Part shown: positions 3,689-34,258 of the stretch, piece after piece
Numbering within the stretch: position 1 is the first letter of the stretch
Layout: each line of letters begins with the position of its first letter
NCBI GenBank assembly: GCA_934481325.1
Contig: CAKSPL010000002.1
Location: forward strand, 1 to 38,793
Length of the DNA stretch: 38,793 nt
Reading direction: 5' to 3'
Source of the DNA: an uncultured Eubacteriales bacterium
Lineage (GTDB): Bacteria; Bacillota; Clostridia; Oscillospirales; CAG-272
Position numbers and translations under genes: made by a program
Notes under the pieces: generated by a model
The model's input: the letters and a program-made list of their open reading frames with translations, nothing else
The model's database searches: none
What the model was told of the DNA's origin: nothing

Positions 3689-4615
3689 TTATTTCAGGAA
3701 CCCGTTGATGATTTGTTCTTCGGCTTCCTTTTCGGTCAGTCCCAGCGTCATCAGCTTGATGAGCTGTTCGCCCGCAATCTTGCCGATTGCCGCTTCGTGA
3801 ATCAGCGACGCCTCGGGGTGGTTGGCGGCGATTTCCGGCACGGCACTGACCCGCGCGCCGTCCATAATGATGGCGTCACATTCCGTGTGTCCCGAACAGC
3901 GGTTGTTGCCGTTGATATGAGAAACGAATTTTTGCGCGGAGCTGTCCTTTGCCACCGAGCGGGAGACCACGTGAGTGCCGCAGTCCGTGCCGTCGAGATC
4001 CACGTCAAAGCGGGTTTCGGCGTGCTGTGCGCCGTGGGTCATAATTTTTTCGTGAATAATCAGCGTTGCCCCGTCCGAGAGTTTGCCGGAGGTAGTGCGG
4101 AGCGTGGAGTCAATGCCCTTGATTTGTGCGGTTTCCATCTCCATATAGGCGTTTTTGCCGAGATATACCACAGTGGTGGGGTTCATCGTGTTTTTGCCGT
4201 TTCCGTCCCCCTCTCCGTAGTGCTTTTCAATATATTTGACCTTGGCACCCTCCTCCAGATAAAAGGTGTGGATACCGCTGTGTTCGCTTTCCTTACTGCC
4301 CGCGTTGTGAATGCCGCAACCGGCAACGATGGTCACATCCGCGCCCGCGCCGACGTGAAAATCGTTGTAAACAAGGTCGTGAAGTCCGGTTTCCGCCAGC
4401 AGAACCGGAATATGCACGCTCTCCTTTTTGGTGCCGGGCTTGATGTAAATATCAATGCCGGGCTTGTCCTCTTTTTTCACAATATCGATATGCTCCGAGG
4501 AGTTTTTACCGAAAAGACTGCCGTTGATGCGCAACGAGTAAGCCCCCTGCGGCACATCGTGAATGCCGGCAATTTCCTCCAAAAGATTTTTCTCAATCTG
4601 CGTCAGTTCAGCCAT
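3689..4615 (-). CDS. SufB/SufD-family Fe-S cluster assembly protein (short form)
   Basis: 308 aa with a beta-helix-like repeat sequence and the C-terminal ...HEAAIGKIAGEQLIKLMTLGLTEKEAEEQIINGFL typical of SufB/D. It overlaps the upstream sufC by 8 nt. Confidence 0.85.
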   Translation of the reverse strand: MAELTQIEKNLLEEIAGIHDVPQGAYSLRINGSLFGKNSSEHIDIVKKEDKPGIDIYIKPGTKKESVHIPVLLAETGLHDLVYNDFHVGAGADVTIVAGCGIHNAGSKESEHSGIHTFYLEEGAKVKYIEKHYGEGDGNGKNTMNPTTVVYLGKNAYMEMETAQIKGIDSTLRTTSGKLSDGATLIIHEKIMTHGAQHAETRFDVDLDGTDCGTHVVSRSVAKDSSAQKFVSHINGNNRCSGHTECDAIIMDGARVSAVPEIAANHPEASLIHEAAIGKIAGEQLIKLMTLGLTEKEAEEQIINGFLK

Positions 4616-5339
4616 TGTTTTTCACCTCCGCGTAACGGCACATTCCCTGTGCGTTCAGCAAGTTGGGCATAATTTCTTCCTTGGAGCCGATTGCCGCCAC
4701 CCTGCCGCCCGAAATCACGATGATTTTGTCGGCGATGTCGAGAATCCGCTCCTGATGCGAAATGATGAGAATACTGCCCTTGGTGCGCTCATACATTTTT
4801 TCAAACACGCGAATCAGGCTGTTGAAGCTCCACAGGTCGATGCCCGCCTCCGGTTCGTCAAACACCGAAAACGCGGTGCCGCGCGCGTTGATCATCGCAA
4901 TTTCAATGCGTTTGAGTTCGCCCCCCGAGAGCGACGCGTTGACCTCACGGTTCACATATTCCTTGGCGCAAAGCCCGACCTCGGAAAGGTATTCGCACAC
5001 GCCGGAGATCGTCATTTTTTCACCGGCGGCAAGCGAGATAAGGTCCTTTACCGTCAGCCCCTTGAAGCGCACGGGCTGCTGAAACGCAAAGCTGATGCCG
5101 CGCCGCGCCCGCTCGGTGACCGAAAGCCCGGTGATGTCCTCTCCGTCCAAAAGCACCCTGCCGGTGGTGGGGGTTACGATGCCGGCAATGATTTTGGCGA
5201 GCGTGGATTTGCCGGAGCCGTTGGGCCCCGTGACCGCCACAAACCGTTCGCTGACCGAAAAGCTCACATCCTCGAGAATGACGGTTTTTCCGCCGTCCTC
5301 GGCGGGAACGGTCAGCCCGATATGCTGTAACTCTAACAT
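4608..5339 (-). CDS. sufC: Fe-S cluster assembly ATPase SufC (ABC ATPase)
   Basis: Walker A GPNGSGKST, ABC signature LSGGELKR, Walker B FSVFDEPEAGID, H-loop IISHQ. It is paired with the SufB/D gene. Confidence 0.9.
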   Translation of the reverse strand: MLELQHIGLTVPAEDGGKTVILEDVSFSVSERFVAVTGPNGSGKSTLAKIIAGIVTPTTGRVLLDGEDITGLSVTERARRGISFAFQQPVRFKGLTVKDLISLAAGEKMTISGVCEYLSEVGLCAKEYVNREVNASLSGGELKRIEIAMINARGTAFSVFDEPEAGIDLWSFNSLIRVFEKMYERTKGSILIISHQERILDIADKIIVISGGRVAAIGSKEEIMPNLLNAQGMCRYAEVKNNG

Positions 5340-5375
5340 AAGTGAAAAACTCCTTTTGGGATAAAATCATTTTTC

Positions 5376-5404
5376 AGTATAGCACACCGCGCGGCGGTTT
5401 GCAA
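5376..5404 (-). promoter_or_regulatory. Sigma-70-type promoter for sufC-sufB/D
   Basis: On the minus strand: TTGCAA (5404..5399), 17 nt, then TGcTATACT with the -10 at 5381..5376. It lies about 35 nt upstream of ATG 5339. Confidence 0.5.
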
Positions 5405-5484
5405 GCGTGATTTTCGTGCTTTTCCTTATTTTGAGCAAAAAGGAGAGAAATATCACAGAGAAAGAGGGAAAAGAAAAACCAAAT

Positions 5485-5502
5485 TTGTTACAAATTTCAC
5501 AA
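5485..5502. promoter_or_regulatory. Rex-like operator dyad TTGTTAC-AAAT-TTCACAA
   Basis: The right half TTCACAA matches the general Rex half-site exactly. The left half TTGTTAC matches the clostridial variant TTGTTAA at 6/7. It ends 9 nt before the -35 of the operon promoter. It overlaps a perfect dyad AAATTTGT-T-ACAAATTT (5481..5497). Confidence 0.45.
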
Positions 5503-5511
5503 GTGCGCCCC

Positions 5512-5541
5512 TTGACGAAAAAAGGCGGGGTGTGCTATAAT
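5512..5541 (+). promoter_or_regulatory. Strong sigma-70-type promoter of the fumC-hdr-flx-frd operon
   Basis: TTGACG (5512..5517), 18-nt spacer, then TGcTATAAT with the -10 at 5536..5541. A second TATAAT lies at 5543..5548. It is about 50 nt upstream of fumC. Confidence 0.6.
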
Positions 5542-5595
5542 GTATAATGTAAATTTGCGGCTTTTGCCGCGCGAAAATACAGGAGGATTTGCAAA

Positions 5596-6972
5596 ATGGA
5601 ATATCGCATTGAACACGACTCGATGGGTGAAGTGAAAGTACCCGCCGACCGCTACTGGGCGGCGCAGACCGAACGCAGCCACGAAAACTTTCCGATCGGT
5701 GTGGGAATTGAGACGATGCCCCGCGAGATTACGCACGCGTTCGGCATTCTGAAAAAGGCGGCGGCAATGGCAAACGCCACGCTCAAGCCCGAAAAGATGA
5801 CCGCCGAGAAGCTTGCCGCCATCAGTGCCGCGTGCGACGAAGTGATTTCCGGCAAGCTGAACGACCATTTCCCGCTTGTGGTATGGCAGACCGGTTCCGG
5901 CACGCAGTCCAATATGAACGCCAACGAGGTGATTGCCAACCGCGCCAACGAGATTGCCGGCGCGAAGCTCTGCCACCCGAACGACGATATCAACATGAGC
6001 CAGTCCTCCAACGACACCTTCCCCACGGCAATGCACATTGCGGCGGTTGCGGCGATTGAGGACAAGCTGTTCCCGGCGATTGACAAGCTGGTGGAGACCT
6101 TCAAGCGGCTGGAAAAAGAGAACGAGGGCATCATCAAGAGCGGACGCACCCACCTGCAGGACGCGACCCCGATTGCCTTCTCCCAGGAGATTTCGGGTTG
6201 GAGAACGAGTCTGGAACGCGACCGCGAGCAATTGGCAATCGCCCTGCCGGGGCTCAAAGAGCTGGCACTCGGCGGCACGGCGGTCGGCACCGGACTCAAC
6301 GCCCCCAAGGGCTTTGACGTGAAGGTGGCGGAAGCGGTTTCCGAAATCACGGGCAAAAACTTCACCACGGCGGGCAACAAATTCCACGCGCTGACCTCCA
6401 AGGACGAGATCGTGTTTGCGCACGGTGCCATCAAGGCACTTGCCTGCGATATGATGAAGATTGCCAACGACGTGCGCTGGCTGGCTTCGGGTCCCCGTCT
6501 CGGACTCGGTGAGATTCACATTCCCGAAAACGAGCCCGGCTCCTCTATTATGCCCGGCAAGGTCAACCCCACGCAGTGCGAGGCGGTGACGATGGTAGCG
6601 GTGCAGGTCATGGGCAACGACGTGGCGGTCGGTATGGCGGCGTCCCAGGGCAACTTTGAGCTGAACGTGTTTATGCCCGTGTGCATTTACAACTTCCTGC
6701 AATCCGCCCGCCTGCTCTCCGAGGCAATGATTTCCTTCAACGATCACTGCGCCGTGGGCATTACCGCCAACAAGGAGAAAATGCACGACAACCTGCACAA
6801 CTCCCTGATGCTGGTGACGGCACTGAACCCCTACATCGGCTACGAGAATGCCGCAAAGACCGTCAAGAAGGCGTTCAAGGAGAATATCTCCCTCAAAGAG
6901 GCGTGCGTGGCACTCGGGTTCCTCACCGCGGAGCGGTTTGACGAAGTGTTCCACCCGGAGCAGATGGTCTGA
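5596..6972 (+). CDS. fumC: Class II fumarate hydratase FumC
   Basis: Motifs seen: [50 protein letters not shown], and the signature [16 protein letters not shown]. These are FumC-type rather than AspA-type. AGGAGG RBS. Confidence 0.92.
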
Positions 6973-7020
6973 TTCCGCCTTGCGGACGACCCCAAAAACT
7001 TGAAGAAGGGAAACAACCCT

Positions 7021-7803
7021 ATGAAATTCAGTTATTATCCCGGATGCACCCTGAAAACCAAGGCAAAGGATCTGGATGCTTACGCACGCAAAAGTGCGGA
7101 GGCACTGGGCTTTACCCTGGAGGAGCTGCCGGAATGGCAGTGCTGCGGGGCGGTTTATCCGATGGCAAGTGACGACATTGCACCCAAGCTCTCCGCCGTG
7201 CGCGCTCTGATGATCGCGCACGAGCGCGGGGAGGAGCTGGTAACGCTGTGTTCTGCCTGCCATAATGTCCTCAAACAGACGAATTATATGATGAAAACCG
7301 ACGCGGCAGGTGCCGCCAAGGTCAACGCTTACTTAAAGCCGGAAGTGCCGTATGCCGGCGAAGCGACGGTGTTGCACTTCCTGGAAGTTCTGCGCGACCG
7401 CGTGGGCTTTGAGGAGCTGGCAAAAAAGGTGGTCAAGCCCCTTACGGGCAGAAAAATCGCCGCGTATTACGGGTGCCTGCTCCTGCGCCCCGGTAAGGTG
7501 ATGGCAATGGACGACCCGGAAAATCCGCGCATCTTAGAAGATTTTATCCGTGCTATCGGCGCGGAGCCGGTTGTTTACGGGATGCGCAACGAATGTTGCG
7601 GCGGATACGTGACGCTGGAAGATAAGTCCCTTGCCGCGAAAAAGAGTACCGCGGTGATGGACAGCGCGGCGGCAAAGGGCGCGGATACCGTGGTAACGGC
7701 GTGCCCGTTGTGCCTGTACAACCTGAAAAAGAACGGCGCACACGCGGAATTGCCCGTGGTTTACTTTACCGAGCTGCTTGCCGAAGCACTGGGTGTGAAA
7801 TGA
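7021..7803 (+). CDS. hdrB: Heterodisulfide reductase subunit B-like (two CCG domains)
   Basis: The pattern C..CCG..CxxC occurs twice: PGCTLK..WQCCGAVYP..LCSACHNV and YYGCLLL..NECCGGYV..ACPLCLYN. I prefer ATG 7021 (MKFSYYPGC) over TTG 7000. Confidence 0.85.
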   Translation: MKFSYYPGCTLKTKAKDLDAYARKSAEALGFTLEELPEWQCCGAVYPMASDDIAPKLSAVRALMIAHERGEELVTLCSACHNVLKQTNYMMKTDAAGAAKVNAYLKPEVPYAGEATVLHFLEVLRDRVGFEELAKKVVKPLTGRKIAAYYGCLLLRPGKVMAMDDPENPRILEDFIRAIGAEPVVYGMRNECCGGYVTLEDKSLAAKKSTAVMDSAAAKGADTVVTACPLCLYNLKKNGAHAELPVVYFTELLAEALGVK

Positions 7804-7813
7804 GGAGGAGACG

Positions 7814-8212
7814 ATGAGCGGTTTTAACAAACACGACGCGCTGGTAGATGAGGTGCTTCGTTCCTCCGGCGTCAACCCCCGCAAATGTATGCGGTGCGGC
7901 AAATGCACCGCCACCTGCCCCGCGTTTGACGAGATGGAATATCACCCGCACCAGTTTGTTTATATGGTGGAGCGGGGCGAGATTGAAAAGCTGATGGCAT
8001 CCCCCTCGATTTACAAATGTCTTTCCTGCTTTGCGTGCCTGGAACGCTGTCCGAGGCAGGTGGAGCCGGTAAAACTGGTGGAGGCGGTGCGCCTTGCCGT
8101 GGTACGGGAGCAGGGGAAAAATCACCTGTCCACCGACGCGATTCCCGCGATGCTGGACGACGACCTGCCCCAGCAGGCAATCACGTCCGCACTGCGGAAA
8201 TACAGAAAGTAA
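7814..8212 (+). CDS. hdrC: Heterodisulfide reductase subunit C-like (2x[4Fe-4S])
   Basis: CMRCGKCTATCP and CLSCFACLERCP motifs; 132 aa; GAGGAGG RBS; 10 nt after hdrB. Confidence 0.85.
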   Translation: MSGFNKHDALVDEVLRSSGVNPRKCMRCGKCTATCPAFDEMEYHPHQFVYMVERGEIEKLMASPSIYKCLSCFACLERCPRQVEPVKLVEAVRLAVVREQGKNHLSTDAIPAMLDDDLPQQAITSALRKYRK

Positions 8213-8227
8213 GGGGGAGGGGACGAA

Positions 8228-10222
8228 ATGCAGAAAATCGGCGTATTCGTATGTCATTGCGGCACCAACATTGCCGGCACGGTGGACGTGAAGGCGGTTG
8301 CCGAAGCACTCTCGCACGAGCCGGGCGTGGTGTTTTCCACCGACTATCAGTATATGTGCTCCGAATCGGGTCAGAGCCTGATGAGAAGCGCAATCAGAGA
8401 ACACGGTCTTACCGGCGTGGTGGTATGCTCCTGCTCCCCCCGGATGCACGAGGCAACCTTCCGCAAAGCGGCGGCAGCAGAGGGGCTGAACCCCTATATG
8501 GTGGAAATTGCCAACATCCGCGAGCAGGTGTCGTGGATTCATAAAGATGTGAAAGAAGCCACCGAAAAGGCAATTATTCTTGCCCGTGCGGCGGTGGCAA
8601 AGGTACACCTCAACAAACCCTTAACGGCAGGGCAAAGCCCCGTGACCAAGCGTGCGCTGGTCATCGGCGGCGGCATTGCCGGCATTCAGACCGCGCTGGA
8701 CATCGCAGAGGCGGGCTTTGAGGTGGATATTGTGGAAAAATCCCCCACCATCGGCGGGAAAATGGCGCAGATTGACAAAACCTTTCCGACCCTGGACTGC
8801 GCCGCCTGTATCCTGACCCCGAAAATGGTGGATGCCGCGCAGAATGACAAAATCACCATTTATTCGTACAGCGAGGTGGAGTCGGTCAAGGGCTTTGTGG
8901 GCAATTTCCGCGTCGGCATCCGGCGCAAGGCGCGCTACGTGGACGAAACGAAATGCACGGGTTGCGGGCTTTGCACCGAAAAATGCCCGCAGAAAAAAGT
9001 GCCCAACGAGTTCAACCTGGGGCTTGACAACCGCCGCGCCATTTACATTCCCTTTGCGCAGGCGGTGCCGAAGGTGGCAACCATTGACGCGGACTACTGC
9101 AATATGCTGAAAAACGGCAAGTGCGGCGTTTGCTCCAAGGTGTGTGGCGCGGGCGCGATTGATTACACGCAAAAGGACGAGGTCATCGAGCGGGAGTACG
9201 GCGCAATCGTTGCCGCCACCGGTTTTAACCCCATCGACGTGAAGCCGTTCGGCGAGTACGGCTATGCCGAGTATCCGGACGTGGTGACCTCGCTGGAGCT
9301 GGAACGCCTGATGAACGCGGCGGGTCCCACGGCGGGCACGCTCCTGCGCCCTTCGGACAAGACCCACCCACACACGCTGGTGTTTGTGCAGTGCGTGGGT
9401 TCCCGTTGCGACGCGGAAAACACCAAGGGCAAGACCTACTGCTCCAAAATCTGCTGTATGTACACGGCAAAGCACGCGATGCTGGTGCGCGAAAAATACC
9501 CGGATACCGAGGTTTACGTGTTCTACATCGACGTGCGCACCCCCGGCAAGAACTTTGACGAGTTTTACCGCCGCGCGGTGGAGCAATACGGCGTACATTA
9601 CATCAAAGGTGCCGTCGGCAAGGTGACGGAGGAAAACGGCAAGCTGAAGGTACAGGCAAGCGACCTGCTTTCCGGTGAGCAGCTGCACATTGACGCCGAT
9701 ATGGTGGTGCTTGCCGCCGCGATTGAGCCGGATAAGAGCGCAAGACATCTTGCCACGATGCTGACTGCCAGTATGGATACCAACGATTTCTTCACCGAGG
9801 CGCACCCGAAGCTCCGCCCGGTGGAAAGCCCTACGGCGGGCATCTTCCTCTCCGGCGTGTGCCAGGGACCCAAGGATATTCCGGAAACGGTGTCGCAGGC
9901 GTCCGCCTGTGCCGCCAAGGTCATCGGGCTTCTTGCCAAGGATCATCTGGTGGGCAACCCCTGCGTGGCACATTCGGACGAGATGCTCTGCAACGGCTGT
10001 TCCTCCTGTGAAAAGGTCTGCCCGTACGGAGCCATCAGCTATTCCGACAAGGAATTCCGCGGGCCCAACCGCACCACGCTGATCCGGCGTGTGGCAAGCG
10101 TCAACGAGGCGGTGTGCCAGGGCTGCGGTGCCTGCACGGTTGCCTGCCCCTCCGGCGCAATGGATTTGAAGGGCTTCTCCAATAAACAGATTATGGCGGA
10201 GGTGGACGCGATATGCAAGTAA
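8228..10222 (+). CDS. hdrA: Heterodisulfide reductase subunit A-like flavoprotein (full-length, bifurcating-type architecture)
   Basis: N-terminal IGVFVCHCGTNIAGTVD...YMCSESGQ...NIREQVSWIH. FAD fold VIGGGIAGIQTALDIAEAG, then DKTFPTLDCAACILTP. Inserted and C-terminal ferredoxin motifs: CTGCGLCTEKCP, CGVCSKVC, CNGCSSCEKVCP, CQGCGACTVACP. Confidence 0.9.
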   Translation: MQKIGVFVCHCGTNIAGTVDVKAVAEALSHEPGVVFSTDYQYMCSESGQSLMRSAIREHGLTGVVVCSCSPRMHEATFRKAAAAEGLNPYMVEIANIREQVSWIHKDVKEATEKAIILARAAVAKVHLNKPLTAGQSPVTKRALVIGGGIAGIQTALDIAEAGFEVDIVEKSPTIGGKMAQIDKTFPTLDCAACILTPKMVDAAQNDKITIYSYSEVESVKGFVGNFRVGIRRKARYVDETKCTGCGLCTEKCPQKKVPNEFNLGLDNRRAIYIPFAQAVPKVATIDADYCNMLKNGKCGVCSKVCGAGAIDYTQKDEVIEREYGAIVAATGFNPIDVKPFGEYGYAEYPDVVTSLELERLMNAAGPTAGTLLRPSDKTHPHTLVFVQCVGSRCDAENTKGKTYCSKICCMYTAKHAMLVREKYPDTEVYVFYIDVRTPGKNFDEFYRRAVEQYGVHYIKGAVGKVTEENGKLKVQASDLLSGEQLHIDADMVVLAAAIEPDKSARHLATMLTASMDTNDFFTEAHPKLRPVESPTAGIFLSGVCQGPKDIPETVSQASACAAKVIGLLAKDHLVGNPCVAHSDEMLCNGCSSCEKVCPYGAISYSDKEFRGPNRTTLIRRVASVNEAVCQGCGACTVACPSGAMDLKGFSNKQIMAEVDAICK

Positions 10223-10653
10223 ACGAAACCGGATATAAACCGAAAATCGTGGCGTTCTGCTGCAACTGGTGTTCCTATGCCGGCGGGGATCTGGCGGGTT
10301 CCTCCCGTCTTTCCTACCCCGCAGAGGTCAAAGTCATCCGCGTACCCTGCTCCTGTCGTGTCAACCCGATGTTCGTACTGCGGGCATTTCAGCGCGGGGC
10401 GGACGGCGTGATCATCGCCGGCTGTCACCCCGGGGACTGTCACTATACCAGCGGCAACTATTTTGCGCGCCGCCGGATGGCATTGCTCTTCTCGATGCTG
10501 GATTACCTCGGCATTGAAAAGGAGCGCACCCGCGTGGAATGGATTTCCGCCGCGGAGGGTGCGAAATTCTCCAAAACGATGAACGAATTCTGTGAAACCG
10601 TTGCCGCGCTCGGCGAAAACAAGCGATTGGAGGACTTACGATGCAAGAAATGA
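10213..10653 (+). CDS. mvhD: MvhD/FlxD-type [2Fe-2S] electron-transfer subunit
   Basis: IVAFCCNWCSYAGGDLAG...VIRVPCSCRVNP...GADGVIIAGCHPGDCHYTSGN is the classical MvhD/FlpD pattern. It overlaps the hdrA stop by 10 nt. Confidence 0.88.
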   Translation: MQVNETGYKPKIVAFCCNWCSYAGGDLAGSSRLSYPAEVKVIRVPCSCRVNPMFVLRAFQRGADGVIIAGCHPGDCHYTSGNYFARRRMALLFSMLDYLGIEKERTRVEWISAAEGAKFSKTMNEFCETVAALGENKRLEDLRCKK

Positions 10654-11615
10654 TGGAAAAACGCGCCGTGGAGCTCCTCGAGGCCGGCACGGTAGACCGT
10701 GTGCTCGGCTGGGCGGCGGGCGAGTTTGCCTATGACCCGACCCCGGCGGTGTTCCGCACCCCCGAGGAAGTGAAGGCACGCTTTGTCTACAACGATTTCT
10801 GCGGGGCAAACCTGTCGAAATATTTGGTGAAGGAATGCAAGGCGGGGGGGAAGATTGCGGTCTTTCTCAAGCCCTGTGACACTTACAGCTTCAACGAACT
10901 GCTGAACGAACACCGCATCAAGCGTGAGATGGTGTACGTGATCGGCATCGAGTGCTACGGCAAAGCCGACGTGGAAAAACTGACGGCAATGGGGCTTTCC
11001 GGCATCACGGGCATCGTGATGAAAAACGGGGAGTACACCGTGGAGACCGTGTACGGCAACAAAACCGTGAAAGCCGCGGATGCCACCGCCGACCGTTGCC
11101 TTGCCTGCAAGAGCAAGAAACACGTGGTGTATGATGAGCTGATCGGTGAGGACGGCGAGTGGACAGAGGACTGCAACCGCTTTGATACGGTGGAAAAACT
11201 GGAGGCAATGACTCCGGACGAGAGATATGCGTTCTGGCAGAACGAGCTTTCGCGTTGCATCCGTTGCAATGCCTGCCGCAACGTATGTCCCGCCTGCACC
11301 TGCGAGCAGTGCGTGTTCGACAACCCGAACTCCGGCGTGGCGCAGAAGGCGGCGGTCAACTCCTTTGAGGAGAGCATGTTCCACATCATCCGCGCGTTCC
11401 ACGTGGCGGGCAGATGTACCGACTGCGGCGAATGCTCCCGCGTGTGTCCTCAGCATATTCCGCTCCACCTGCTCAACCGCAAATTCATCCTGGACGTGAA
11501 CCGCTTCTACGGGGACTATCAGGCGGGCGCGGATACCGAAACCAAGCCTCCGCTTGGCACTTATCGGCAAAACGACATCGAACCCGGTGCCGCCGTGGGA
11601 GGTGGAAAACAATGA
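10641..11615 (+). CDS. Fe-S subunit, FlxB/C-like (HydB/AsrA-related 4Fe-4S dicluster protein)
   Basis: CIRCNACRNVCPACTCEQC and CTDCGECSRVCPQHIP motifs. GGAGG lies 7 nt upstream. It overlaps mvhD by 13 nt. Confidence 0.7.
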   Translation: MQEMMEKRAVELLEAGTVDRVLGWAAGEFAYDPTPAVFRTPEEVKARFVYNDFCGANLSKYLVKECKAGGKIAVFLKPCDTYSFNELLNEHRIKREMVYVIGIECYGKADVEKLTAMGLSGITGIVMKNGEYTVETVYGNKTVKAADATADRCLACKSKKHVVYDELIGEDGEWTEDCNRFDTVEKLEAMTPDERYAFWQNELSRCIRCNACRNVCPACTCEQCVFDNPNSGVAQKAAVNSFEESMFHIIRAFHVAGRCTDCGECSRVCPQHIPLHLLNRKFILDVNRFYGDYQAGADTETKPPLGTYRQNDIEPGAAVGGGKQ

Positions 11616-12640
11616 AATTTCTGAAACAAGAATCGCTTTCCGCCCTTTTTGCCAAAATTGCGGAAAAAGAGACGCTGTACCTGCCGCAAAAGCAGGAGAA
11701 CGGCAAAGCCGCTTACAAGGAGTGGCACGAGGGCGCGGAATATGCGCGGAGCCTGAATACCGTGCGCTCCGCAAAGGACTTTTTCTTCCCCCAGACCGAA
11801 AACCTGATGGATTTCAAAATGGAAGGGAAGAACATCACGATAGAGGACACGAGAAAAGAGTGTGAGGATTTTGTGCTGTTCGGCGTGCGCGCCTGTGACG
11901 CACGGAGTTTTGACATTCTCGACAGCGTGTACCTTGCAAACCCCGTGGATACCTATTATCAGAACCGCCGGGCGCACGGCACCGTGGTAACGGTTGCCTG
12001 CACGCGCCCCGGTGAGAGTTGTTTTTGCCACGTGTTCGGCATTGACGCTACCGACCCCGCCGGCGACGTGACCGCGTGGGAGACGGAAGAAGGCTTCTTC
12101 CTCCGCCCGAACACCGAAAAGGGCGAGGCTCTGCTTGCCGCCGCGGGCGACCTGCTTTCCGAAAAGGACGCCGCCGCGGTAGAGGCACAGCGTGCCGCCG
12201 TAAAGGAAATTCAGGCGAAGCTGCCGCTCGCAACGCTCACCGCCAAGGGCTTTGGCGGGGGGCTGACGAAGGAGCTGTTTGACCGCCCGGAGTGGAAAAC
12301 GCTGTCCGAGGCGTGCCTCGGGTGCGGCAGTTGTACCTTCCATTGTCCCACCTGTCAGTGCTACGACATCCGGGATTTTGACACCGGACACGGAATCAAA
12401 CGCTTCCGGTGCTGGGATTCCTGTATGTATTCCGATTTCACGAAGATGTCCGCGGGTCAGCCCCGCCCCACACAGCTGGAGCGGTTCCGCCAACGCTTTA
12501 TGCACAAGCTGGTTTACTACCCCGAAAACAACGGCGGGGTGTTCGGCTGTGTGGGTTGCGGGCGGTGCCTGATCGGGTGTCCGATTTCGATGAACATCGT
12601 CAAAGTGATGAAAACGCTGGGAGGGAAGAGCAATGAATAA
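11612..12640 (+). CDS. Fe-S subunit, AsrA/HydB/FlxB-C-like
   Basis: The start was moved to ATG 11612 (MKFLKQESL), forming an ATGA overlap with the upstream stop. Motifs: GVRACDARS, ESCFCHVFG, CLGCGSCTFHCPTCQCYD, CVGCGRCLIGCP. This resembles the anaerobic sulfite reductase A / sulfhydrogenase beta pattern. Confidence 0.75.
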   Translation: MKFLKQESLSALFAKIAEKETLYLPQKQENGKAAYKEWHEGAEYARSLNTVRSAKDFFFPQTENLMDFKMEGKNITIEDTRKECEDFVLFGVRACDARSFDILDSVYLANPVDTYYQNRRAHGTVVTVACTRPGESCFCHVFGIDATDPAGDVTAWETEEGFFLRPNTEKGEALLAAAGDLLSEKDAAAVEAQRAAVKEIQAKLPLATLTAKGFGGGLTKELFDRPEWKTLSEACLGCGSCTFHCPTCQCYDIRDFDTGHGIKRFRCWDSCMYSDFTKMSAGQPRPTQLERFRQRFMHKLVYYPENNGGVFGCVGCGRCLIGCPISMNIVKVMKTLGGKSNE

Positions 12641-13460
12641 CGAAACCCTGATTCCTGTGGTCTGCAAGGTCATTGACATCCGGCAGGACACTCCCGACGT
12701 GAAAACCTTCCGCGTAGTCACGCCGGACGGAAAAAAGCCCTTTGACCACCGCCCCGGGCAGTGCGCAATGCTCTCGGTACCCGGCATCAGCGAAGCGATG
12801 ATTTCCATTACCTCCTCGCCGACCAACAGGGAGTATATGGAGTTCAGCGTGAAGAAATGCGGGTGCTTAACCGAGTGGCTCCACGCAATGGAGGTGGGGC
12901 AGTGCATCACGGTGAGAGGCCCGTACGGGCGTCCTTTTCCCGTGGATGACGAGCTTGCCGGCAAGGATTTACTCTTTGTGGCGGGCGGCATCGGGCTTGC
13001 GCCCTTGCGCTCCGTCATCAATTACGTGCGGGATAACCGCGGGAAATACGGCACCGTGGACATCGTGTACGGCTCCCGCTCCAAGGACGACCTGGTGGAT
13101 TACCGCGAGATCGTGGAGGAATGGGAAAAGACCGAGGGCTTCCGCGTGCATCTGACCATCGACCGTGAGCAGGAGGGCTGGGACGGGCACGTCGGCTTTG
13201 TGCCGAACTACGTCAAGGAGCTTGCCCCCGACGTGAAAAAGACCGTTCTGATGTGCGGGCCTCCCATTATGATCAAATTCACTCTGCAGGGACTGATGGA
13301 GCTGGGCTTTGACAAAACCCGGATTTATACCACGATGGAACTGCGGATGAAGTGCGGGATCGGCAAGTGCGGGCGTTGCAATATCGGCAGTAAGTACGTC
13401 TGCAAGGACGGGCCCGTCTTCCGGTTTGACGAGCTGGATGAGCTTCCCAACGAATACTGA
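12633..13460 (+). CDS. FAD/NAD(P)H-binding [2Fe-2S] oxidoreductase subunit (AsrB/HydG/FlxA/PyrK-like)
   Basis: FNR-like fold with RPGQCAML..., NAD(P)-binding LLFVAGGIGLAPLRS, and a C-terminal cluster MKCGIGKCGRCN...CKDGPVF. It overlaps the upstream gene by 8 nt. Confidence 0.8.
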   Translation: MNNETLIPVVCKVIDIRQDTPDVKTFRVVTPDGKKPFDHRPGQCAMLSVPGISEAMISITSSPTNREYMEFSVKKCGCLTEWLHAMEVGQCITVRGPYGRPFPVDDELAGKDLLFVAGGIGLAPLRSVINYVRDNRGKYGTVDIVYGSRSKDDLVDYREIVEEWEKTEGFRVHLTIDREQEGWDGHVGFVPNYVKELAPDVKKTVLMCGPPIMIKFTLQGLMELGFDKTRIYTTMELRMKCGIGKCGRCNIGSKYVCKDGPVFRFDELDELPNEY

Positions 13461-13478
13461 TAAGGAGACAGCACAAAA

Positions 13479-14156
13479 ATGGAACAGAATATGATTCATA
13501 TTTACCTGATGGGCAAGCAGTATGAAGTGCCTGCCAGCCTGACCATTATGGGCGCGATGGAATACGCCGGCTATCAGCTGGTGCGCGGGTGCGGGTGCCG
13601 TTGCGGATTTTGCGGCGCGTGCGCCACAATCTACCGCGTGAAGGGGGATACCGAGCTTCACGCCTGCCTTGCGTGCCAGACGCAGGTGGTGGACAATATG
13701 TACGTGGCAACCCTGCCGTTCTTCCCGCTGGTGAAAAAGCCGTTTGATATCGAAAAAATCAAACCCACCGAGCAGATTATGATGCAGCTTTACCCCGAGA
13801 TTTACGCTTGCGTGGGCTGTAACGCCTGCACCAAGGCGTGCACCCAGGGGCTGAACGTGATGCAGTACATCGCTTACGCTCAGCGCGGCGAGTACGAAAA
13901 GTGCGCAGAGGCTTCCTTTGACTGCGTGATGTGCGGCGTTTGCTCGTCGAGATGTCCCGCCGGCATCAGCCACCCGCAGGTGGCGTTGCTGGCGCGCCGA
14001 CTGACCGGCAAGTACATTGCCCCCCGCTCCGAGCATCTGGAAAAGCGGGTGGAGGAGATTCTGCACGGCGATTACAAGGCACTGATCGAGAGCCTGATGC
14101 AGAAGCCGCTGGAAGAGCTCAAAGAGCTGTACAACAACCGCGTCATCGAGAAATAA
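13479..14156 (+). CDS. Succinate dehydrogenase/fumarate reductase iron-sulfur subunit-like protein
   Basis: N-terminal Cys cluster GCGCRCGFCGAC...HACLAC (2Fe-2S-like), followed by CVGCNACTKAC and CVMCGVCSSRCP. TAAGGAG RBS. Confidence 0.7.
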   Translation: MEQNMIHIYLMGKQYEVPASLTIMGAMEYAGYQLVRGCGCRCGFCGACATIYRVKGDTELHACLACQTQVVDNMYVATLPFFPLVKKPFDIEKIKPTEQIMMQLYPEIYACVGCNACTKACTQGLNVMQYIAYAQRGEYEKCAEASFDCVMCGVCSSRCPAGISHPQVALLARRLTGKYIAPRSEHLEKRVEEILHGDYKALIESLMQKPLEELKELYNNRVIEK

Positions 14157-14171
14157 GGAGGGGAGCGCACA

Positions 14172-15788
14172 ATGTATACACAGGAAATGCTGGAATCCAT
14201 CAAAAAGGTGGAAGCAACGAGAGCCTCGCGCCTTGGCGTGGAGCCCCGCCGGATGACCGCGGACGAAAAGGAAGCTCTGCTTGCCGAGTTTCACCCCGAT
14301 CACATTGCCTCTCAGTTTGCCACACTGAAAATCGGACCCAACAAGGGTGAGAAAGTGCCGCTGGAACTGGCGGATATTCTGCAGGCAAACAGCCGCGTCA
14401 ATCCCGCCGCCGTTGACCTTTCCAACCCGGATTACGACGTGGACGTTCTGATTATCGGCGGCGGCGGAGCCGGCTCCGCCGCGGCAATTATGGCACACGA
14501 AAACGGTGCCGACGTGATGATTGTGACCAAGCTCCGCCACGGCGACGCCAACACCATGATGGCAGAGGGCGGCATCCAGGCGGCGGACAAGGAGGGCGAC
14601 AGCCCCGCGATTCACTACCTGGACGCACTGGGCGGCGGTCACTTCAAAAACGTGCCGGAGCTGCTGGAAAAACTGGTGACCGAGGGTCCGATTGCCGTGA
14701 AATGGCTCAACGACCTCGGCGTGATGTTTGACAAGGAGCCGGACGGTACCATGATCACCACCCACGGCGGCGGCACCTCCCGCAAGAGAATGCACGCGGC
14801 AAAGGACTATTCCGGTGCCGAGATTATGCGGGTGTTGCGCGATGAGGTCATCAACCGCGGGATTCCGGTGGTGGACTTTACCTCCGCCATCGAGATTATC
14901 AAGGACGAAAACGGCAGGGCGGCAGGTGCCGTGCTGATGAATATGGAGACGAAGGAGATTCTGATTGCCCGTGCGAAAACCGTGATTATCGCCACCGGCG
15001 GTGCGGGGCGGATGCACTATCAGGGCTTCCCCACCTCCAACCACTACGGTGCCACGGCGGACGGGCTGGTTCTGGCTTACCGCGCGGGCGCGCCGCTGCT
15101 TTACGCATACACTCTGCAATACCACCCCACGGGCGTGGCGTATCCCTCCCAGATTTTCGGCGCACTGGTCACCGAAAAGGTGCGTTCCATCGGCGCAATG
15201 CTGGTTAACTCCGAGGGCGAGGCGTTTATGCACCCGTTGGAAACGCGTGACGTTGCCGCCGCCTCCATTATCCGGGAGTGCAAGGCGCGTCACAAGGGCG
15301 TTGCCACCCCCGACGGGGGCTTTGGCGTGTGGTTGGATTCGCCGATGATTGAGCTTCTCCACGGAGAGGGAACTATCGAAAAGCGAATTCCGGCAATGAT
15401 GCGGATGTATCTCAAATACGGCATCGATATGCGCAAGCAGCCGATTCTCGTTTACCCCACGCTCCATTATCAGAACGGCGGCATCAAGATTGCCGCAAAC
15501 GCGATGTCGGATGTGGAAAACCTGTTTGTGGCGGGCGAGGCTGTGGGCGGTATCCACGGCGAAAACCGCCTGATGGGCAACTCGTTGCTTGACATCATCG
15601 TGTTCGGCAGAACGGCGGGTATCGAGGCGGCAAAAACCGCCAAAAACACCACGGTGGGCAAACTGAACCTTGACCACGTGACCGCGTTTGCCAAGGAAAT
15701 GGCGGATGCCGGGATCAAGACCGACAAGGTCTCCCCGATTCTGCTTCCGCACTACACGCACGGAAACCCCCGGTTTGAAGCAAAATAA
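14172..15788 (+). CDS. Fumarate reductase/succinate dehydrogenase-family flavoprotein (soluble type, non-covalent FAD predicted)
   Basis: DVLIIGGGGAGSAAA Rossmann fold, then ...ANTMMAEGGIQAA, LQYHPTG, LVTEKVRSIGAMLVN, PTLHYQNGGI and HGENRLMGNSLLDIIVFGR. By eye these align to E. coli FrdA H232, R287, H355 and R390. AAGGAGG RBS. Confidence 0.75.
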   Translation: MYTQEMLESIKKVEATRASRLGVEPRRMTADEKEALLAEFHPDHIASQFATLKIGPNKGEKVPLELADILQANSRVNPAAVDLSNPDYDVDVLIIGGGGAGSAAAIMAHENGADVMIVTKLRHGDANTMMAEGGIQAADKEGDSPAIHYLDALGGGHFKNVPELLEKLVTEGPIAVKWLNDLGVMFDKEPDGTMITTHGGGTSRKRMHAAKDYSGAEIMRVLRDEVINRGIPVVDFTSAIEIIKDENGRAAGAVLMNMETKEILIARAKTVIIATGGAGRMHYQGFPTSNHYGATADGLVLAYRAGAPLLYAYTLQYHPTGVAYPSQIFGALVTEKVRSIGAMLVNSEGEAFMHPLETRDVAAASIIRECKARHKGVATPDGGFGVWLDSPMIELLHGEGTIEKRIPAMMRMYLKYGIDMRKQPILVYPTLHYQNGGIKIAANAMSDVENLFVAGEAVGGIHGENRLMGNSLLDIIVFGRTAGIEAAKTAKNTTVGKLNLDHVTAFAKEMADAGIKTDKVSPILLPHYTHGNPRFEAK

Positions 15789-15803
15789 GGGAGAACTGAC
15801 GGA

Positions 15804-17000
15804 ATGATTGACTATCTTGGCGGGGTGCTTGGCTCCTGGCTCGGCATCATTTTCTTCGTCTTTGTGATTGCAACGCTTGGCTATCTTGTGGGCGGCATCA
15901 CCATCAAGGGCATTTCTCTCGGCACTGCGGGCGTATTGCTTGTGGCATTGCTTTTCGGGATTCTTGCAAACTTTGTACCTTCCTTTACGGTGGGCAGTAC
16001 CACCGTTACGCTGTTTGACGCAGGGCTGAAAACCAAATTCAGCCTGGTGTCCAGCCTTGGCACCGCGATGTTTGTCACGGCGGTGGGGTTGATTGCGGGG
16101 CCGAAATTCTTCCGCACCTTCAACCGCAAGTCGCTGGCGTACATCTGCATGGGCGTGATTGTGATTCTGGTCGGCTCGCTGACCGCGTTCCTCTGCTCGT
16201 TCCTTGACGGGGGGCTGAGCGTGGATATGGCGGTGGGTCTGATGACCGGCGCACTGACCTCCACCCCGGGGCTTTCCGCCGCAAAGGAGGTTGCCGCCGA
16301 CGAGGCGGCGGTGACCGCCGGTTACGGTATCGCGTATCTTTTCGGCGTGCTCGGCGTGGTGTTTTTCGTTCAGCTGGTGCCGAAAATCCTGCGCGTGAAT
16401 ATGGAGAAGGAGCGCGAGAGCTTTGTGGCGGCAAACGCCGTGGAGGTAAAGCCGATTGAGCGGCGGCTTGTGAAGCTGGAGCCGTTCGGCTTTTTCCCGT
16501 TCTTTCTTGCCATTGCGTTGGGGTGCTTCATCGGCTCTGTCAAAATTCCGGGCATCAACTTCTCGCTCGGTACCTCGGGCGGCACGCTGATTGCGGGCTT
16601 GCTGATCGGGCATTTCGGGCATATCGGGCCGATTGACTGCCGCATCGGCAAGGACACGCTGAAATTCTTCCGGGAGCTGGGGCTGGTGCTGTTTCTCATC
16701 GGCGCGGGCGTACCCGGCGGCGTGAACTTCGTTTCCAACGTCAAGGTGTCGTATTTCCTGTACGGTGCACTGATGACACTGCTGCCGATGCTGGTCGGGT
16801 TCCTGCTTGCCAAATATGTGTTCAAGCTGAGCGTGTTCAACAACCTCGGCTCCATCACCGGCGGTATGACCTCCACCCCCGCGCTCGGTGCGCTGATCAG
16901 CACTGCCGGCACGGACGACGTGTCCTCTGCCTACGCGCTGACCTACCCCGTGGCACTGGTGTGCGTGGTGCTGGCGGCAAAGATTTTGCTGATGCTCTGA
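15804..17000 (+). CDS. AAEx-family (AspT/YidE/YbjL/SucE-like) transporter, short form
   Basis: 398 aa made of two homologous multi-TM halves (G..LG.AGVLLVALLFG / G..GGTLIAGLLIGHFG) joined by a short linker. No room is visible for TrkA-C domains. Confidence 0.75.
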   Translation: MIDYLGGVLGSWLGIIFFVFVIATLGYLVGGITIKGISLGTAGVLLVALLFGILANFVPSFTVGSTTVTLFDAGLKTKFSLVSSLGTAMFVTAVGLIAGPKFFRTFNRKSLAYICMGVIVILVGSLTAFLCSFLDGGLSVDMAVGLMTGALTSTPGLSAAKEVAADEAAVTAGYGIAYLFGVLGVVFFVQLVPKILRVNMEKERESFVAANAVEVKPIERRLVKLEPFGFFPFFLAIALGCFIGSVKIPGINFSLGTSGGTLIAGLLIGHFGHIGPIDCRIGKDTLKFFRELGLVLFLIGAGVPGGVNFVSNVKVSYFLYGALMTLLPMLVGFLLAKYVFKLSVFNNLGSITGGMTSTPALGALISTAGTDDVSSAYALTYPVALVCVVLAAKILLML

Positions 17001-17024
17001 TTTCCCGCGGCAAAAACCGCAAAT

Positions 17025-17064
17025 AAAAAAGAAACCCGTATGCTCTGCGTTCGGGTTTCTTTTG
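17025..17064 (+). terminator. Rho-independent terminator of the 11-gene operon
   Basis: GAAACCCG (17031..17038), 13-nt loop, CGGGTTTC (17052..17059), then TTTTG. An A-run lies upstream. Confidence 0.7.
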
Positions 17065-17417: not shown

Positions 17418-18197
17418 TTAGTTGTTCAGCAGGTGCCCGTCAACCGAAACGGTCACAACCTGCCACGGGATAAATTTTCCGCTAGTTTTCAGGGCATTGA
17501 TTGCCGCCTGTTGAAGTCCGCCACAGCAGGGGACCTCCATTCGCACCACCGTTACACTGCGGATGTCGTTATTCCGGATGATTTCGGTCAGCTTTTCGCT
17601 GTAATCCACCGCATCCAGCTTCGGGCATCCGATCAGCGTAATTTTGCCGCGCATCAATTCCTCGTGCAGTCCGGCATAGGCAAAGGCGGTGCAGTCGGCG
17701 GCAATCAGCAGGTTGGCACCGTCAAAATACGGCGCGTTGACAGGCACCAGCCTGATCTGGCAGGGCCATTGCCCCAAGCGCGAAATCGGCGTGCGCGTTG
17801 TGGCTCCCACCGTGTCGCCCGGTTCCTCGCGGCGAAATTGCCGCAACCGATGCCCCGGGCAACCGTGAAAACCACCGTGCGCACCGCCGCCCGTGGCAAA
17901 ATCACCCACGGCAAAATCACCCGCGGCAAAATCCCCCGCGCCGCCGCCCGCGGCGGTTTTTTTCTTTTGACGCGCCGCCACTGCCGCCGCATCGTACGCC
18001 GCCGCTTCCCGCTCGGTAAAGCGGATGGCTCCCGTGGGGCATTCGGGCAGGCAGTCCCCCATTCCGTCACAATAATCGTCCCGAATCAGCTTTGCCTTTC
18101 CGTTTACCATCGCAATGGCACCCTCGTGGCAGGCATTTGCACACGCGCCGCAGCCGTTGCACTTTTCTTCGTCTATTTCGATGATTTTTCGGATCAT
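17418..18197 (-). CDS. Ferredoxin-domain protein (2x[4Fe-4S] N-domain plus a Cys-containing C-domain; frdX-like)
   Basis: CNGCGACANACHEGAI and CDGMGDCLPECPTGAI are followed by a low-complexity linker (AGDFAAGDFAVGDFATGG). The C-domain reads ...LIAADCTAFAY...LIGCPKLD...VPCCGG. GAAGGAGG RBS. Confidence 0.8.
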   Translation of the reverse strand: MIRKIIEIDEEKCNGCGACANACHEGAIAMVNGKAKLIRDDYCDGMGDCLPECPTGAIRFTEREAAAYDAAAVAARQKKKTAAGGGAGDFAAGDFAVGDFATGGGAHGGFHGCPGHRLRQFRREEPGDTVGATTRTPISRLGQWPCQIRLVPVNAPYFDGANLLIAADCTAFAYAGLHEELMRGKITLIGCPKLDAVDYSEKLTEIIRNNDIRSVTVVRMEVPCCGGLQQAAINALKTSGKFIPWQVVTVSVDGHLLNN

Positions 18198-18226: not shown

Positions 18227-18268
18227 ATTATAGCGCGTTTTCTGACGTTTGTATGTGGTTATAACCAC
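18227..18268 (-). promoter_or_regulatory. Class-II-type promoter of the ferredoxin gene: -10 TATAAT plus 14-bp dyad GTGGT-TATA-ACCAC
   Basis: On the minus strand TATAAT lies at 18232..18227 with no good -35. The perfect 5-4-5 palindrome sits at 18255..18268. Its centre is about 41.5 nt upstream of the TSS inferred from the -10. Confidence 0.45.
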
Positions 18269-18341
18269 GAAATTTTCGGTTTTGGACTTGAATTTCGGAT
18301 TCCCGATGCGTACAATAAAAGAAAACACCAAGGAGGCAGAA

Positions 18342-19414: not shown

Positions 19415-19489
19415 TGGTGACCCCTACGGGAATCGAACCCATGCCTTCGCCGTGAGAGGGCGACGTCTTAGCCGCTTGACTAAGGGGCC
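19415..19489 (-). tRNA. tRNA-Glu (anticodon CUC), CCA encoded
   Basis: The minus strand reads GGCCCCTTAGTCAAGCGGCTAAGACGTCGCCCTCTCACGGCGAAGGCATGGGTTCGATTCCCGTAGGGGTCACCA. Acceptor stem GGCCCCT/AGGGGTC, anticodon stem TCGCC/GGCGA with loop CTCTCAC, T-arm ATGGG-TTCGATT-CCCGT. Confidence 0.93.
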
Positions 19490-34239: not shown

Positions 34240-34258
34240 GGCACGGAAGGGAGAAAAA

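Follow-up and report, generated by a model that had tools for sequence, protein, structure and literature searches.

Pseudoclostridium thermosuccinogenes carries the closest described counterpart of the locus analysed here, a 'succinate operon' that extends from CDQ83_RS03365 to RS03315 (Koendjbiharie et al. 2020, BMC Microbiol, PMC7282089). RNA-seq data show that its genes are highly expressed and about 4-fold co-regulated, and the same paper already proposed that fumarate reduction is coupled in this organism to ferredoxin reduction through Flx-Hdr (PMC7282089). Here we describe an operon of similar composition that occupies positions 5485-17064 of a 38,793-nucleotide (nt) stretch of contig CAKSPL010000002.1, from an uncultured Eubacteriales bacterium (CAG-272); the whole stretch is referred to below as the window. 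The eleven genes encode a class II fumarase (FumC), the seven proteins of an Flx-Hdr module, the two subunits of a soluble fumarate reductase (Frd) and a transporter of the AAEx family. An original prediction, made from the sequence alone, had read them as a candidate electron-bifurcating fumarate reductase. Our analyses make it probable that the operon provides the final reactions of a reductive fermentation branch that leads to succinate, most likely with electron bifurcation at HdrA. The concept is not new, as the P. thermosuccinogenes operon has been in print since 2019-2020 (a 2019 preprint, 10.20944/preprints201912.0288.v1, followed by PMC7282089). What is added here is the breadth of operon conservation in gut Clostridia, the replacement of one fumarase class by the other and the linkage to an Ldh/Mdh-family dehydrogenase, a set of invariant catalytic and cofactor motifs that includes an asparagine in place of the histidine that binds flavin adenine dinucleotide (FAD), relatives of the reductase that are fused or differently partnered, and a candidate Rex operator.

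The P. thermosuccinogenes genome was not among the 80 best loci on which most of our comparisons rest, and it was compared through the gene coordinates given in the RNA-seq supplement of the paper. As judged from order, size and annotation rather than from alignment, its fumarase, seven Flx-Hdr and two Frd genes match window genes 1-10 one to one. RS03360 measures 784 base pairs (bp) against 783 bp for hdrB of the window, RS03355 measures 325 bp against 399 bp for hdrC, and the five genes RS03350-30 span 5348 bp against 5233 bp for hdrA-flxA. For the reductase, RS03325 (676 bp) corresponds to the gene for the iron-sulfur (Fe-S) subunit (678 bp) and RS03320 (1603 bp) to that for the flavoprotein (1617 bp). 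The last gene differs, in that RS03315 has about 250 bp and encodes a hypothetical protein of about 82 amino acids, whereas the window carries a gene for a 398-amino-acid AAEx protein. The small size of RS03315 indicates that the transporter belongs to the operons of the gut lineages and is absent from that of P. thermosuccinogenes, a thermophile of another order than the window host for which CRISPRi has been established (PMC9044749).

The Flx-Hdr part also has a counterpart without a fumarate reductase. FlxABCD-HdrABC of Desulfovibrio vulgaris, a proposed NADH dehydrogenase/heterodisulfide reductase (Ramos et al. 2015, as cited in PMC7282089 and PMC6315080), has the same seven-subunit inventory, although the window genes run in the inverted order (hdrBCA-flxDCBA) and share a single operon with fumarate reductase, fumarase and transporter genes. 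This correspondence in inverted order had been predicted, and it is borne out by the presence of the FlxA domains, the two Fe-S proteins, MvhD and all of HdrA, HdrB and HdrC. In ethanol metabolism of D. vulgaris, the complex has been proposed to pass its electrons to DsrC or to a disulfide; no DsrC-like gene is present here. MvhAGD-HdrABC of hydrogenotrophic methanogens (5odc) is related through HdrA, which aligns over its whole length, and through MvhD, HdrB and HdrC, which retain all cluster ligands in the window as well. However, no hydrogenase domains (MvhA, MvhG) were found in the operon or its flanks. The donor module in the window is instead Flx, which would use NAD(P)H, and the presumed acceptor is fumarate via Frd rather than the heterodisulfide of coenzymes M and B (CoM-S-S-CoB).

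The reductase, in turn, resembles the thiol:fumarate reductase TfrAB of Methanothermobacter (Heim et al. 1998, as cited in PMC6315080), of which TfrA is the best NCBIfam match of the window flavoprotein (NF004900; 332 bits against a cutoff of 718, with model positions 6-419 of 546 matched), followed by Frd/Sdh and NadB models. The window protein is without the 127 C-terminal residues of TfrA and has 87 additional residues at its N terminus. TfrB combines a [2Fe-2S] cluster, two [4Fe-4S] clusters and two CCG domains in one polypeptide, which is equivalent to the products of window gene 9, hdrC and hdrB placed end to end. Indeed, these three proteins line up one after another along the NCBIfam TfrB model (at positions 19-92, 134-220 and 257-487), such that the analogy to Tfr drawn in the original prediction holds. 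Since the CCG clusters, the [4Fe-4S]/[2Fe-2S] clusters and the Frd flavin of Tfr make up a single electron path, the mapping provides a precedent for electrons moving directly from HdrB/HdrC into the Frd Fe-S subunit. Both reductases are soluble and quinone-independent. The window adds HdrA, MvhD and Flx to the Tfr-like parts, and the thiols coenzyme M and coenzyme B are not expected in bacteria.

An arrangement that brings both elements together is known from the reductive tricarboxylic acid (rTCA) cluster of Ca. Endoriftia persephone and Thioflavicoccus mobilis, where tfrAB and flxABCD-hdrABC are interspersed alongside korABCD and an electron-shuttling complex was independently proposed (Rubin-Blum et al. 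2019, mSphere, PMC6315080). In these organisms a soluble AB-type fumarate reductase also lies amid Flx-Hdr genes, and NADH-driven bifurcation to fumarate and ferredoxin was suggested; according to a 2026 survey the complex is still a suggestion, supported by co-expression only (PMC13147460). That cluster belongs to Gammaproteobacteria and to autotrophic CO2 fixation, with 2-oxoglutarate:ferredoxin oxidoreductase and ATP citrate lyase, whereas the window represents fermentative gut Clostridia with fumC and an exporter. In addition, a 2024 preprint describes as 'unusual' that HdrA of Ruminococcus champanellensis is associated with succinate dehydrogenase/fumarate reductase. More distant is complex II (E. 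coli FrdABCD), with which the window flavoprotein shares the fold and catalytic residues and the Fe-S subunit shares a [2Fe-2S] N-terminal part. Unlike complex II, the window system has no membrane anchor genes, no histidine for covalent FAD attachment and no Succ_DH_flav_C domain, and it carries a second [4Fe-4S] cluster motif in place of that for [3Fe-4S].

The identity of the reductase rests largely on gene 10 (14172..15788; like all eleven genes on the + strand), which encodes a 538-amino-acid flavoprotein with an FAD_binding_2 domain (PF00890, 227 bits). The protein carries an 87-residue N-terminal extension and has no Succ_DH_flav_C domain, its match to the models being confined to their FAD and capping domains. 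An AlphaFold2 model of good quality (predicted local distance difference test score 88, predicted template modelling score 0.89), in which the extension is predicted to be folded, was compared with known structures by Foldseek; E. coli FrdA was the top match (E = 2e-33), with M. smegmatis SdhA and flavocytochrome c3 also among the best neighbours (E about 1e-33 to 1e-31 for the three). The sequence was further aligned to E. coli SdhA, M. smegmatis SdhA and family members down to 40% identity. Residues H242, E255, R286, H354 and R399 of SdhA correspond to H318, E335, R359, H432 and R466 of the window protein, all of which are invariant, and T254 of SdhA corresponds to a conserved Thr/Ser. At the position of the histidine that binds FAD covalently there is Asn127, likewise invariant in the family, and the FAD is therefore predicted to be held non-covalently. 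FrdA and SdhA proteins with non-covalent FAD support fumarate reduction but not efficient succinate oxidation, and thus Asn127 argues for the former direction. Taken together, the invariant catalytic residues, the FrdA/SdhA fold, the exchange of class I and class II fumarases and the recurrent Ldh/Mdh-family gene described below strongly support fumarate as the substrate, in keeping with the FrdA-like assignment made originally.

The preceding gene (gene 9; 13479..14156) encodes the 225-amino-acid Fe-S subunit, which consists of Fer2_4 and dicluster domains with one [2Fe-2S] motif and two [4Fe-4S] motifs. Its cysteines 40/45/48/66, 111/114/117/121 and 149/152/155/159 are invariant among 80 homologues. 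Since CxxCxxCxxxC occurs twice and no 3Fe-4S motif is present, a second [4Fe-4S] cluster is expected where complex II has [3Fe-4S]. The label 'FrdB-like' used in the original prediction is apt insofar as the protein resembles SdhB/FrdB, although the resemblance is distant (E about 1e-4). A Pfam search revealed no CCG domain in this subunit. That genes 9 and 10 form one enzyme is indicated by a family member in which the Fe-S subunit and the flavoprotein are naturally fused (P0122, 727 amino acids, at 5250-7433 of locus L086). No hdr genes lie upstream of this fusion on the short contig that carries it.

Relatives of the flavoprotein occur in at least 576 species-level GTDB genomes, of which we used the best 80 loci (69-84% identity) and determined colinearity by tblastn searches with the eleven window proteins. 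At least 120 protein clusters have 83% identity or more to the flavoprotein, and clusters with more than 1000 metagenomic members were found around a second query, a Ruminiclostridium-labelled homologue. Nearly all of the best 80 loci belong to gut or rumen Clostridia (Acutalibacteraceae, Oscillospiraceae, Lachnospiraceae, Christensenellaceae and Ruminococcus), and the cultured Ohessyouella blattaphilus (strain PAL227, locus L063) is among them. The order hdrB-hdrC-hdrA-mvhD-Fe-S-Fe-S-flxA-frdB-frdA is colinear in 56 of the 57 species-level loci that include enough upstream DNA, and human-gut contigs carry the same eleven genes between wholly different flanks. The linkage of hdr, flx and frdBA thus exceeds chance. 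Loss of co-conservation between frdBA and the hdr/flx genes in a neighbourhood census had been named beforehand as a result that would speak against the prediction, and the opposite was found.

The genes on either side of this conserved core point to the pathway. Among 40 loci with both flanks available, class II fumC lies upstream in 25 and a two-subunit class I fumarase lies downstream in 13; none has both and two have neither, such that one fumarase accompanies the core in 38 of 40. A gene for an Ldh/Mdh-family dehydrogenase is present in 32 of the same 40 loci. Where fumC is missing, the class I fumarase (Fumerase and Fumerase_C domains) follows frdA directly and the Ldh_1-family gene, probably encoding malate dehydrogenase, precedes hdrB. 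Lachnospiraceae-type examples of the two flanking positions are found at 1795-2742 and 11678-13076 of locus L041 and at 1899-2846 and 11615-13014 of locus L063. No mdh gene was found in the window. The non-orthologous replacement of fumarases within the operon is strong evidence that the pathway runs (from oxaloacetate) via malate and fumarate to succinate.

The assignments of the remaining products were made by hidden Markov model searches with Pfam models and with NCBIfam/TIGR models and their cutoffs, and these agree with the gene inventory as first predicted. The first gene, fumC (5596..6972, 458 amino acids), encodes a class II fumarate hydratase with Lyase_1 and FumaraseC_C domains. It exceeds the TIGR00979 equivalog cutoff (719 bits against 665), whereas aspartase models remain under their cutoffs, except for the broad subfamily model NF008909 (517 against 510). 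The hdrB-like gene (7021..7803, with an alternative TTG start at 7000) encodes 260 amino acids with two CCG domains (PF02754 twice) and matches the NCBIfam HdrB model; its homologues are called at 261 amino acids. All ten cysteines of its two C-X(31-39)-CC-X(34)-C-XX-C motifs are invariant in 58 homologues. The hdrC-like product (7814..8212, 132 amino acids) is predicted to bind two [4Fe-4S] clusters on the basis of TIGR03290 and Pfam dicluster domains, and its eight cysteines are invariant in 55 homologues. Full-length HdrA (8228..10222, 664 amino acids), a flavoprotein with additional Fe-S domains, aligns from residue 3 to 661 with the crystallised bifurcating HdrA 5odc_A (712 bits) and covers positions 1-641 of the NCBIfam HdrA2 model (802 bits). 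Positions 643-774 of the same model, which represent its MvhD part, are matched by the next product, the [2Fe-2S] electron-transfer protein MvhD/FlxD (10213..10653, 146 amino acids; PF02662 FlpD, 183 bits).

Three further genes complete the Flx part. Gene 6 (10641..11615, 324 amino acids) stands in the FlxC position and encodes an Fe-S protein with a 4Fe-4S dicluster domain and a weak FrhB_FdhB_N match. Gene 7 (11612..12640, 342 amino acids), in the FlxB position, encodes an AsrA/HydB/ShyB-like Fe-S protein that contains Fer4_22 (101 bits) and matches NCBIfam ShyB (182 bits) and AsrA (140 bits), both under cutoff. Of the two HydB/AsrA-like proteins originally predicted, the assignment therefore stands for gene 7 but could not be demonstrated for gene 6; considered as a HydB/AsrA-like paralogue of gene 7, the latter was found by BLASTP to share a cysteine motif alone. 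Gene 8 (12633..13460, 275 amino acids) encodes an FlxA-like FAD/NAD(P)/[2Fe-2S] protein with three Pfam domains, FAD_binding_6 (PF00970), NAD_binding_1 (PF00175) and DHODB_Fe-S_bind (PF10418), is AsrB/HydG-like by NCBIfam, and is the presumed entry point for NAD(P)H. The last gene, gene 11 (15804..17000), encodes a short AAEx-family transporter of 398 amino acids (PF06826 Asp-Al_Ex twice, 224 bits) that is probably a succinate exporter. Such a gene lies downstream in 40 of 68 related loci. The AAEx transporters AspT and SucE typically carry a central pair of TrkA_C domains, and no TrkA_C domain was reported in the Pfam search of the window protein.

Based on these assignments, FumC would convert malate to fumarate, the soluble two-subunit reductase would reduce fumarate to succinate, and the AAEx transporter would export the product. 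Electrons from NAD(P)H would pass from the FlxA-like flavoprotein through the two Fe-S proteins and MvhD/FlxD to the FAD of HdrA, where flavin-based electron bifurcation would take place. The downhill electron would then move through HdrC, the non-cubane clusters of HdrB and the Frd Fe-S subunit to the FAD of FrdA and on to fumarate, whereas the uphill electron would reach ferredoxin by way of the ferredoxin domains of HdrA. The net equation would read 2 NADH + Fd(ox) + fumarate -> 2 NAD+ + Fd(red, 2 e-) + succinate, and the reduced ferredoxin could subsequently be used by a membrane enzyme such as Rnf for energy conservation. Standard potentials are +33 mV for fumarate/succinate, -320 mV for NAD+/NADH and -420 to -500 mV for ferredoxin, from which we compute about -33 to -49 kJ per 2 NADH for the coupled reaction. 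The existence of a soluble fumarate reductase wired to Flx-Hdr in a malate-to-succinate operon appears well supported by gene content and linkage, and the proposed bifurcation mechanism is plausible and thermodynamically sound. Complex formation, the nature of the donor, the direct path from HdrB to Frd and bifurcation itself are what we infer from this arrangement. More tentatively, and at somewhat less than even likelihood, the nine products HdrBCA, MvhD/FlxD, genes 6-7, FlxA and FrdBA might form one soluble bifurcating complex in which HdrB acts as a thiol-free relay, and which would be the first with fumarate as its high-potential acceptor.

Relatives of the reductase with other partners are informative in weighing this proposal. 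A gammaproteobacterial metagenome-assembled genome carries, at 9366-12891 of locus L084, an Fe-S subunit, a 47%-identical flavoprotein and a NuoF-like protein with Complex1_51K and NADH_4Fe-4S domains, and no Hdr or Flx genes; this set appears to represent a simple form of the reductase that is linked to NADH. A Prochlorococcus-labelled locus (L087, 8001-10357) has the pair in the opposite order, with the gene for a 42%-identical flavoprotein ahead of that for the Fe-S subunit, and Hdr, Flx and NuoF genes are absent from its vicinity. The protein cluster of this flavoprotein includes Prochlorococcus sp. MIT 1201, an oxygenic phototroph. In the sole exception to colinearity noted above (L082), frdBA stands behind a CitMHS-family transporter gene, without Hdr/Flx. 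Finally, locus L088 (811-9771), whose contig ends on both sides, encodes a four-subunit 2-oxoacid:ferredoxin oxidoreductase followed by hdrA-mvhD-hdrC-hdrB-frdB-frdA with a 56%-identical flavoprotein; there are no flx genes in between, and hdrB directly adjoins frdB. This last locus resembles the rTCA-type cluster of the tubeworm symbionts. Association of Hdr with frdBA thus recurs in two different gene orders, and the variety of partners indicates that the reductase is a module that docks to different electron-input modules.

Several observations weigh against a bifurcating Hdr-linked fumarate reductase. The loci L082, L084 and L087 imply that the reductase does not need Hdr, no rnf or other ferredoxin-consuming genes occur in the window, and bifurcation by the Desulfovibrio FlxABCD-HdrABC complex has reportedly not been shown in vitro. 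HdrB retains an intact site of the disulfide-reductase type, which leaves room for a thiol/disulfide intermediate, and the active-site residues of gene 10, taken alone, may also fit an L-aspartate oxidase-type enzyme. Moreover, no biochemical evidence for the complex, for ferredoxin reduction or for the stoichiometry was found for any organism in a literature search that extended to 2026 and lay outside most subscription journals. The statement in the original prediction that no biochemically characterised enzyme of this composition was known is consistent with that search, but the design itself had already been published (PMC7282089).

Four other readings were considered, the likeliest of which is a non-bifurcating NADH:fumarate reductase in which Flx and Hdr just wire electrons from NAD(P)H to Frd and ferredoxin is not reduced. 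The NuoF-like partner in L084 indicates that a plain NADH-dependent soluble reductase is viable, the transfer of electrons from NADH to fumarate alone is strongly exergonic (about -68 kJ/mol by our calculation), and bifurcation by a bacterial Flx-Hdr system is unproven. Nevertheless, we consider this reading unlikely, because the reductase is accompanied in 56 of 57 loci by MvhD and by a full-length HdrA that has every domain of the crystallised bifurcating enzyme, and because seven extra Fe-S and flavin subunits would make a costly wire where one NuoF-like subunit suffices elsewhere. In a second reading, two enzymes are joined by a diffusible thiol/disulfide, with a bifurcating Flx-Hdr reducing the disulfide and the thiol feeding the fumarate reductase as in Tfr. 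The complete and invariant CCG motifs of HdrB in 58 sequences speak for it. TfrAB is a precedent for a thiol-fed fumarate reductase, and Flx-Hdr has been said to give electrons to 'ferredoxin (and thiols)' (PMC7282089). This reading is decidedly unlikely in our view, since the Frd Fe-S subunit has no CCG domain and the operon encodes a single CCG protein, which leaves no second site to re-oxidise the thiol. In addition, neither the operon nor the window contains a gene for thiol-cofactor biosynthesis or a DsrC-like protein, and hdrB lies directly beside frdB in L088.

Two further readings concern the reaction catalysed by the flavoprotein rather than its wiring. The substrate could be L-aspartate, as for NadB, or another unsaturated or 2-substituted carboxylate, given that the flavoprotein reaches no NCBIfam model at cutoff, scores nearly equally with NadB and Frd/Sdh models and has an unusual N-terminal extension with the C-terminal domain missing. 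AAEx transporters, moreover, include aspartate:alanine exchangers, and class II fumarase is homologous to aspartase. However, the lyase gene passes the fumC equivalog cutoff and not its aspartase equivalents, and other lineages use in its place a class I Fe-S fumarase that is unrelated to aspartase, together with an Ldh/Mdh-family dehydrogenase. Frd/Sdh enzymes, unlike NadB, typically have an Fe-S subunit of their own, the structural search placed FrdA and SdhA at the top, and P. thermosuccinogenes makes succinate. A non-fumarate substrate is consequently very improbable. The original prediction had also held that the reverse, confurcating reaction, in which succinate and reduced ferredoxin yield 2 NADH, was 'equally compatible' with the operon. 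Hdr-type complexes are reversible in principle, and one related locus (L078) is labelled Phascolarctobacterium, a succinate consumer. By our calculation from standard potentials, however, the reverse reaction would require an input of about 33-49 kJ/mol, and the histidine for covalent FAD binding that is needed for efficient succinate oxidation is replaced by the invariant Asn127. The context of malate dehydrogenase, fumarase and exporter and the production of succinate by the known host of the operon point in the same direction. Equal compatibility is thus not upheld, and the reverse direction is the least credible of the readings considered, with a likelihood close to negligible.

Among the related loci, near-identical operons with 69-73% flavoprotein identity were also found in bins labelled Planctomycetota (L022), Bacteroides uniformis (L027), Bacteroidaceae (L028), Synergistaceae (L060) and Phascolarctobacterium (L078). 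These are probably mis-binned Clostridia contigs, or otherwise cases of horizontal transfer.

The eleven + strand open reading frames of the operon (5596-17000) are free of internal stops, and a GGAGG-like ribosome-binding site stands in front of every one of them. Six junctions have gaps of 48, 10, 15, 18, 15 and 15 nt, and the other four overlap by 4-13 nt (10222/10213, 10653/10641, 11615/11612 and 12640/12633). The gap of 48 nt presupposes that hdrB starts at the ATG at 7021, whereas the longest hdrB reading frame begins with TTG at 7000. The prediction of a single co-directional eleven-gene transcription unit with translational coupling agrees with these reading frames, gaps and overlaps. 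The predicted promoter is a sigma-70-type element at 5512..5541 (+ strand; TTGACG-18-TATAAT, 11 of 12 matches, with an extended -10 TG) and scores highest in the 14 kb scanned between 4500 and 18500. The strong terminator predicted for the operon end was located at 17027..17064 (+ strand) by RNA folding and by reading of the sequence. It comprises an intrinsic hairpin with a 12-bp stem (-26.9 kcal/mol, z = -5.0, with none of 200 shuffles as good) and a subsequent U run. The pattern scan of the window did not list this terminator, because its loop is longer than 8 nt. Rfam and transfer RNA (tRNA) scans of the window returned tRNA-Glu at 19415-19489 alone and no riboswitch or leader before the operon.

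The upstream neighbours, which encode SufD-like and SufC-like proteins and MutY, lie on the opposite strand, and together with the strong promoter and terminator they identify the operon as a well-bounded unit. The SufD-like and SufC-like genes for Fe-S cluster assembly (3689-5339, - strand) are divergent from, and directly upstream of, the Fe-S-rich operon, a proximity that may be a coincidence. Directly past the terminator are genes for a 259-amino-acid protein with an N-terminal 2x[4Fe-4S] ferredoxin domain (17418-18197, - strand) and a Crp/Fnr-family regulator (18249-18980, + strand). Neither gene is kept beside the operon in the human-gut loci L001-L003. A mis-assembly or an island acquired by horizontal transfer was considered and rejected, as the guanine-cytosine (GC) content and skew of the operon are unremarkable and GC at third codon positions is uniform (0.69-0.80). 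Farther downstream (30926-34933, + strand), the window contains three consecutive long reading frames (614, 479 and 238 amino acids) with no Pfam match at E <= 1e-5. Long reading frames on the opposite strand overlap them, leaving the coding strand ambiguous.

A candidate regulatory site lies 10 nt upstream of the -35 element, where the palindrome TTGTTACAAATTTCACAA (5485..5502) resembles a Rex-type operator. It differs by one mismatch from the clostridial Rex operator consensus TTGTTAANNNNTTAACAA (as quoted in PMC9600882), and it is the sole TGTNA-N6-TCACA in the window, where 0.13 would be expected. A census of the 250 nt upstream of the first operon gene, with random windows and shuffled upstream regions as controls, revealed sites with at most one mismatch in 10 of 54 related loci (7 of 1080 random windows; 1 of 1080 shuffles) and sites with at most two mismatches in 17 of 54 (26 of 1080 and 10 of 1080, respectively). 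Perfect sites are present in two related loci. Control by a repressor that senses NADH/NAD+ would fit an enzyme predicted to consume NADH, and no rex gene was found in the window. A Crp-type reading of the palindrome (5486-5501) is considered less likely than a Rex-type operator, because of the agreement of the 18-mer with the clostridial Rex consensus and because related loci repeatedly carry TTGTTAA-N4-TTAACAA sites that are nearly perfect. Some likelihood is left to the Crp-type reading by the Crp/Fnr-family gene located at 18249-18980.

A specialist in flavin-based bifurcation would not be surprised by such a system. It is nonetheless widespread ecologically, and the proposal is now six years old. 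It also bears on biotechnology, since P. thermosuccinogenes, a thermophile, makes succinate by this route. If the complex does bifurcate electrons, fumarate would join the short list of high-potential acceptors in flavin-based bifurcation, and HdrB-type non-cubane clusters would gain a thiol-free role. Succinate fermentation in many gut Clostridia would then yield reduced ferredoxin, and thereby extra ATP (via Rnf) or H2, on top of the re-oxidation of NADH, which would alter the balances of energy and redox equivalents now attributed to succinate production by gut and rumen communities. Hundreds of quinone-free species of gut Clostridia would, in effect, carry out a cytoplasmic 'fumarate respiration' that conserves energy by way of reduced ferredoxin.

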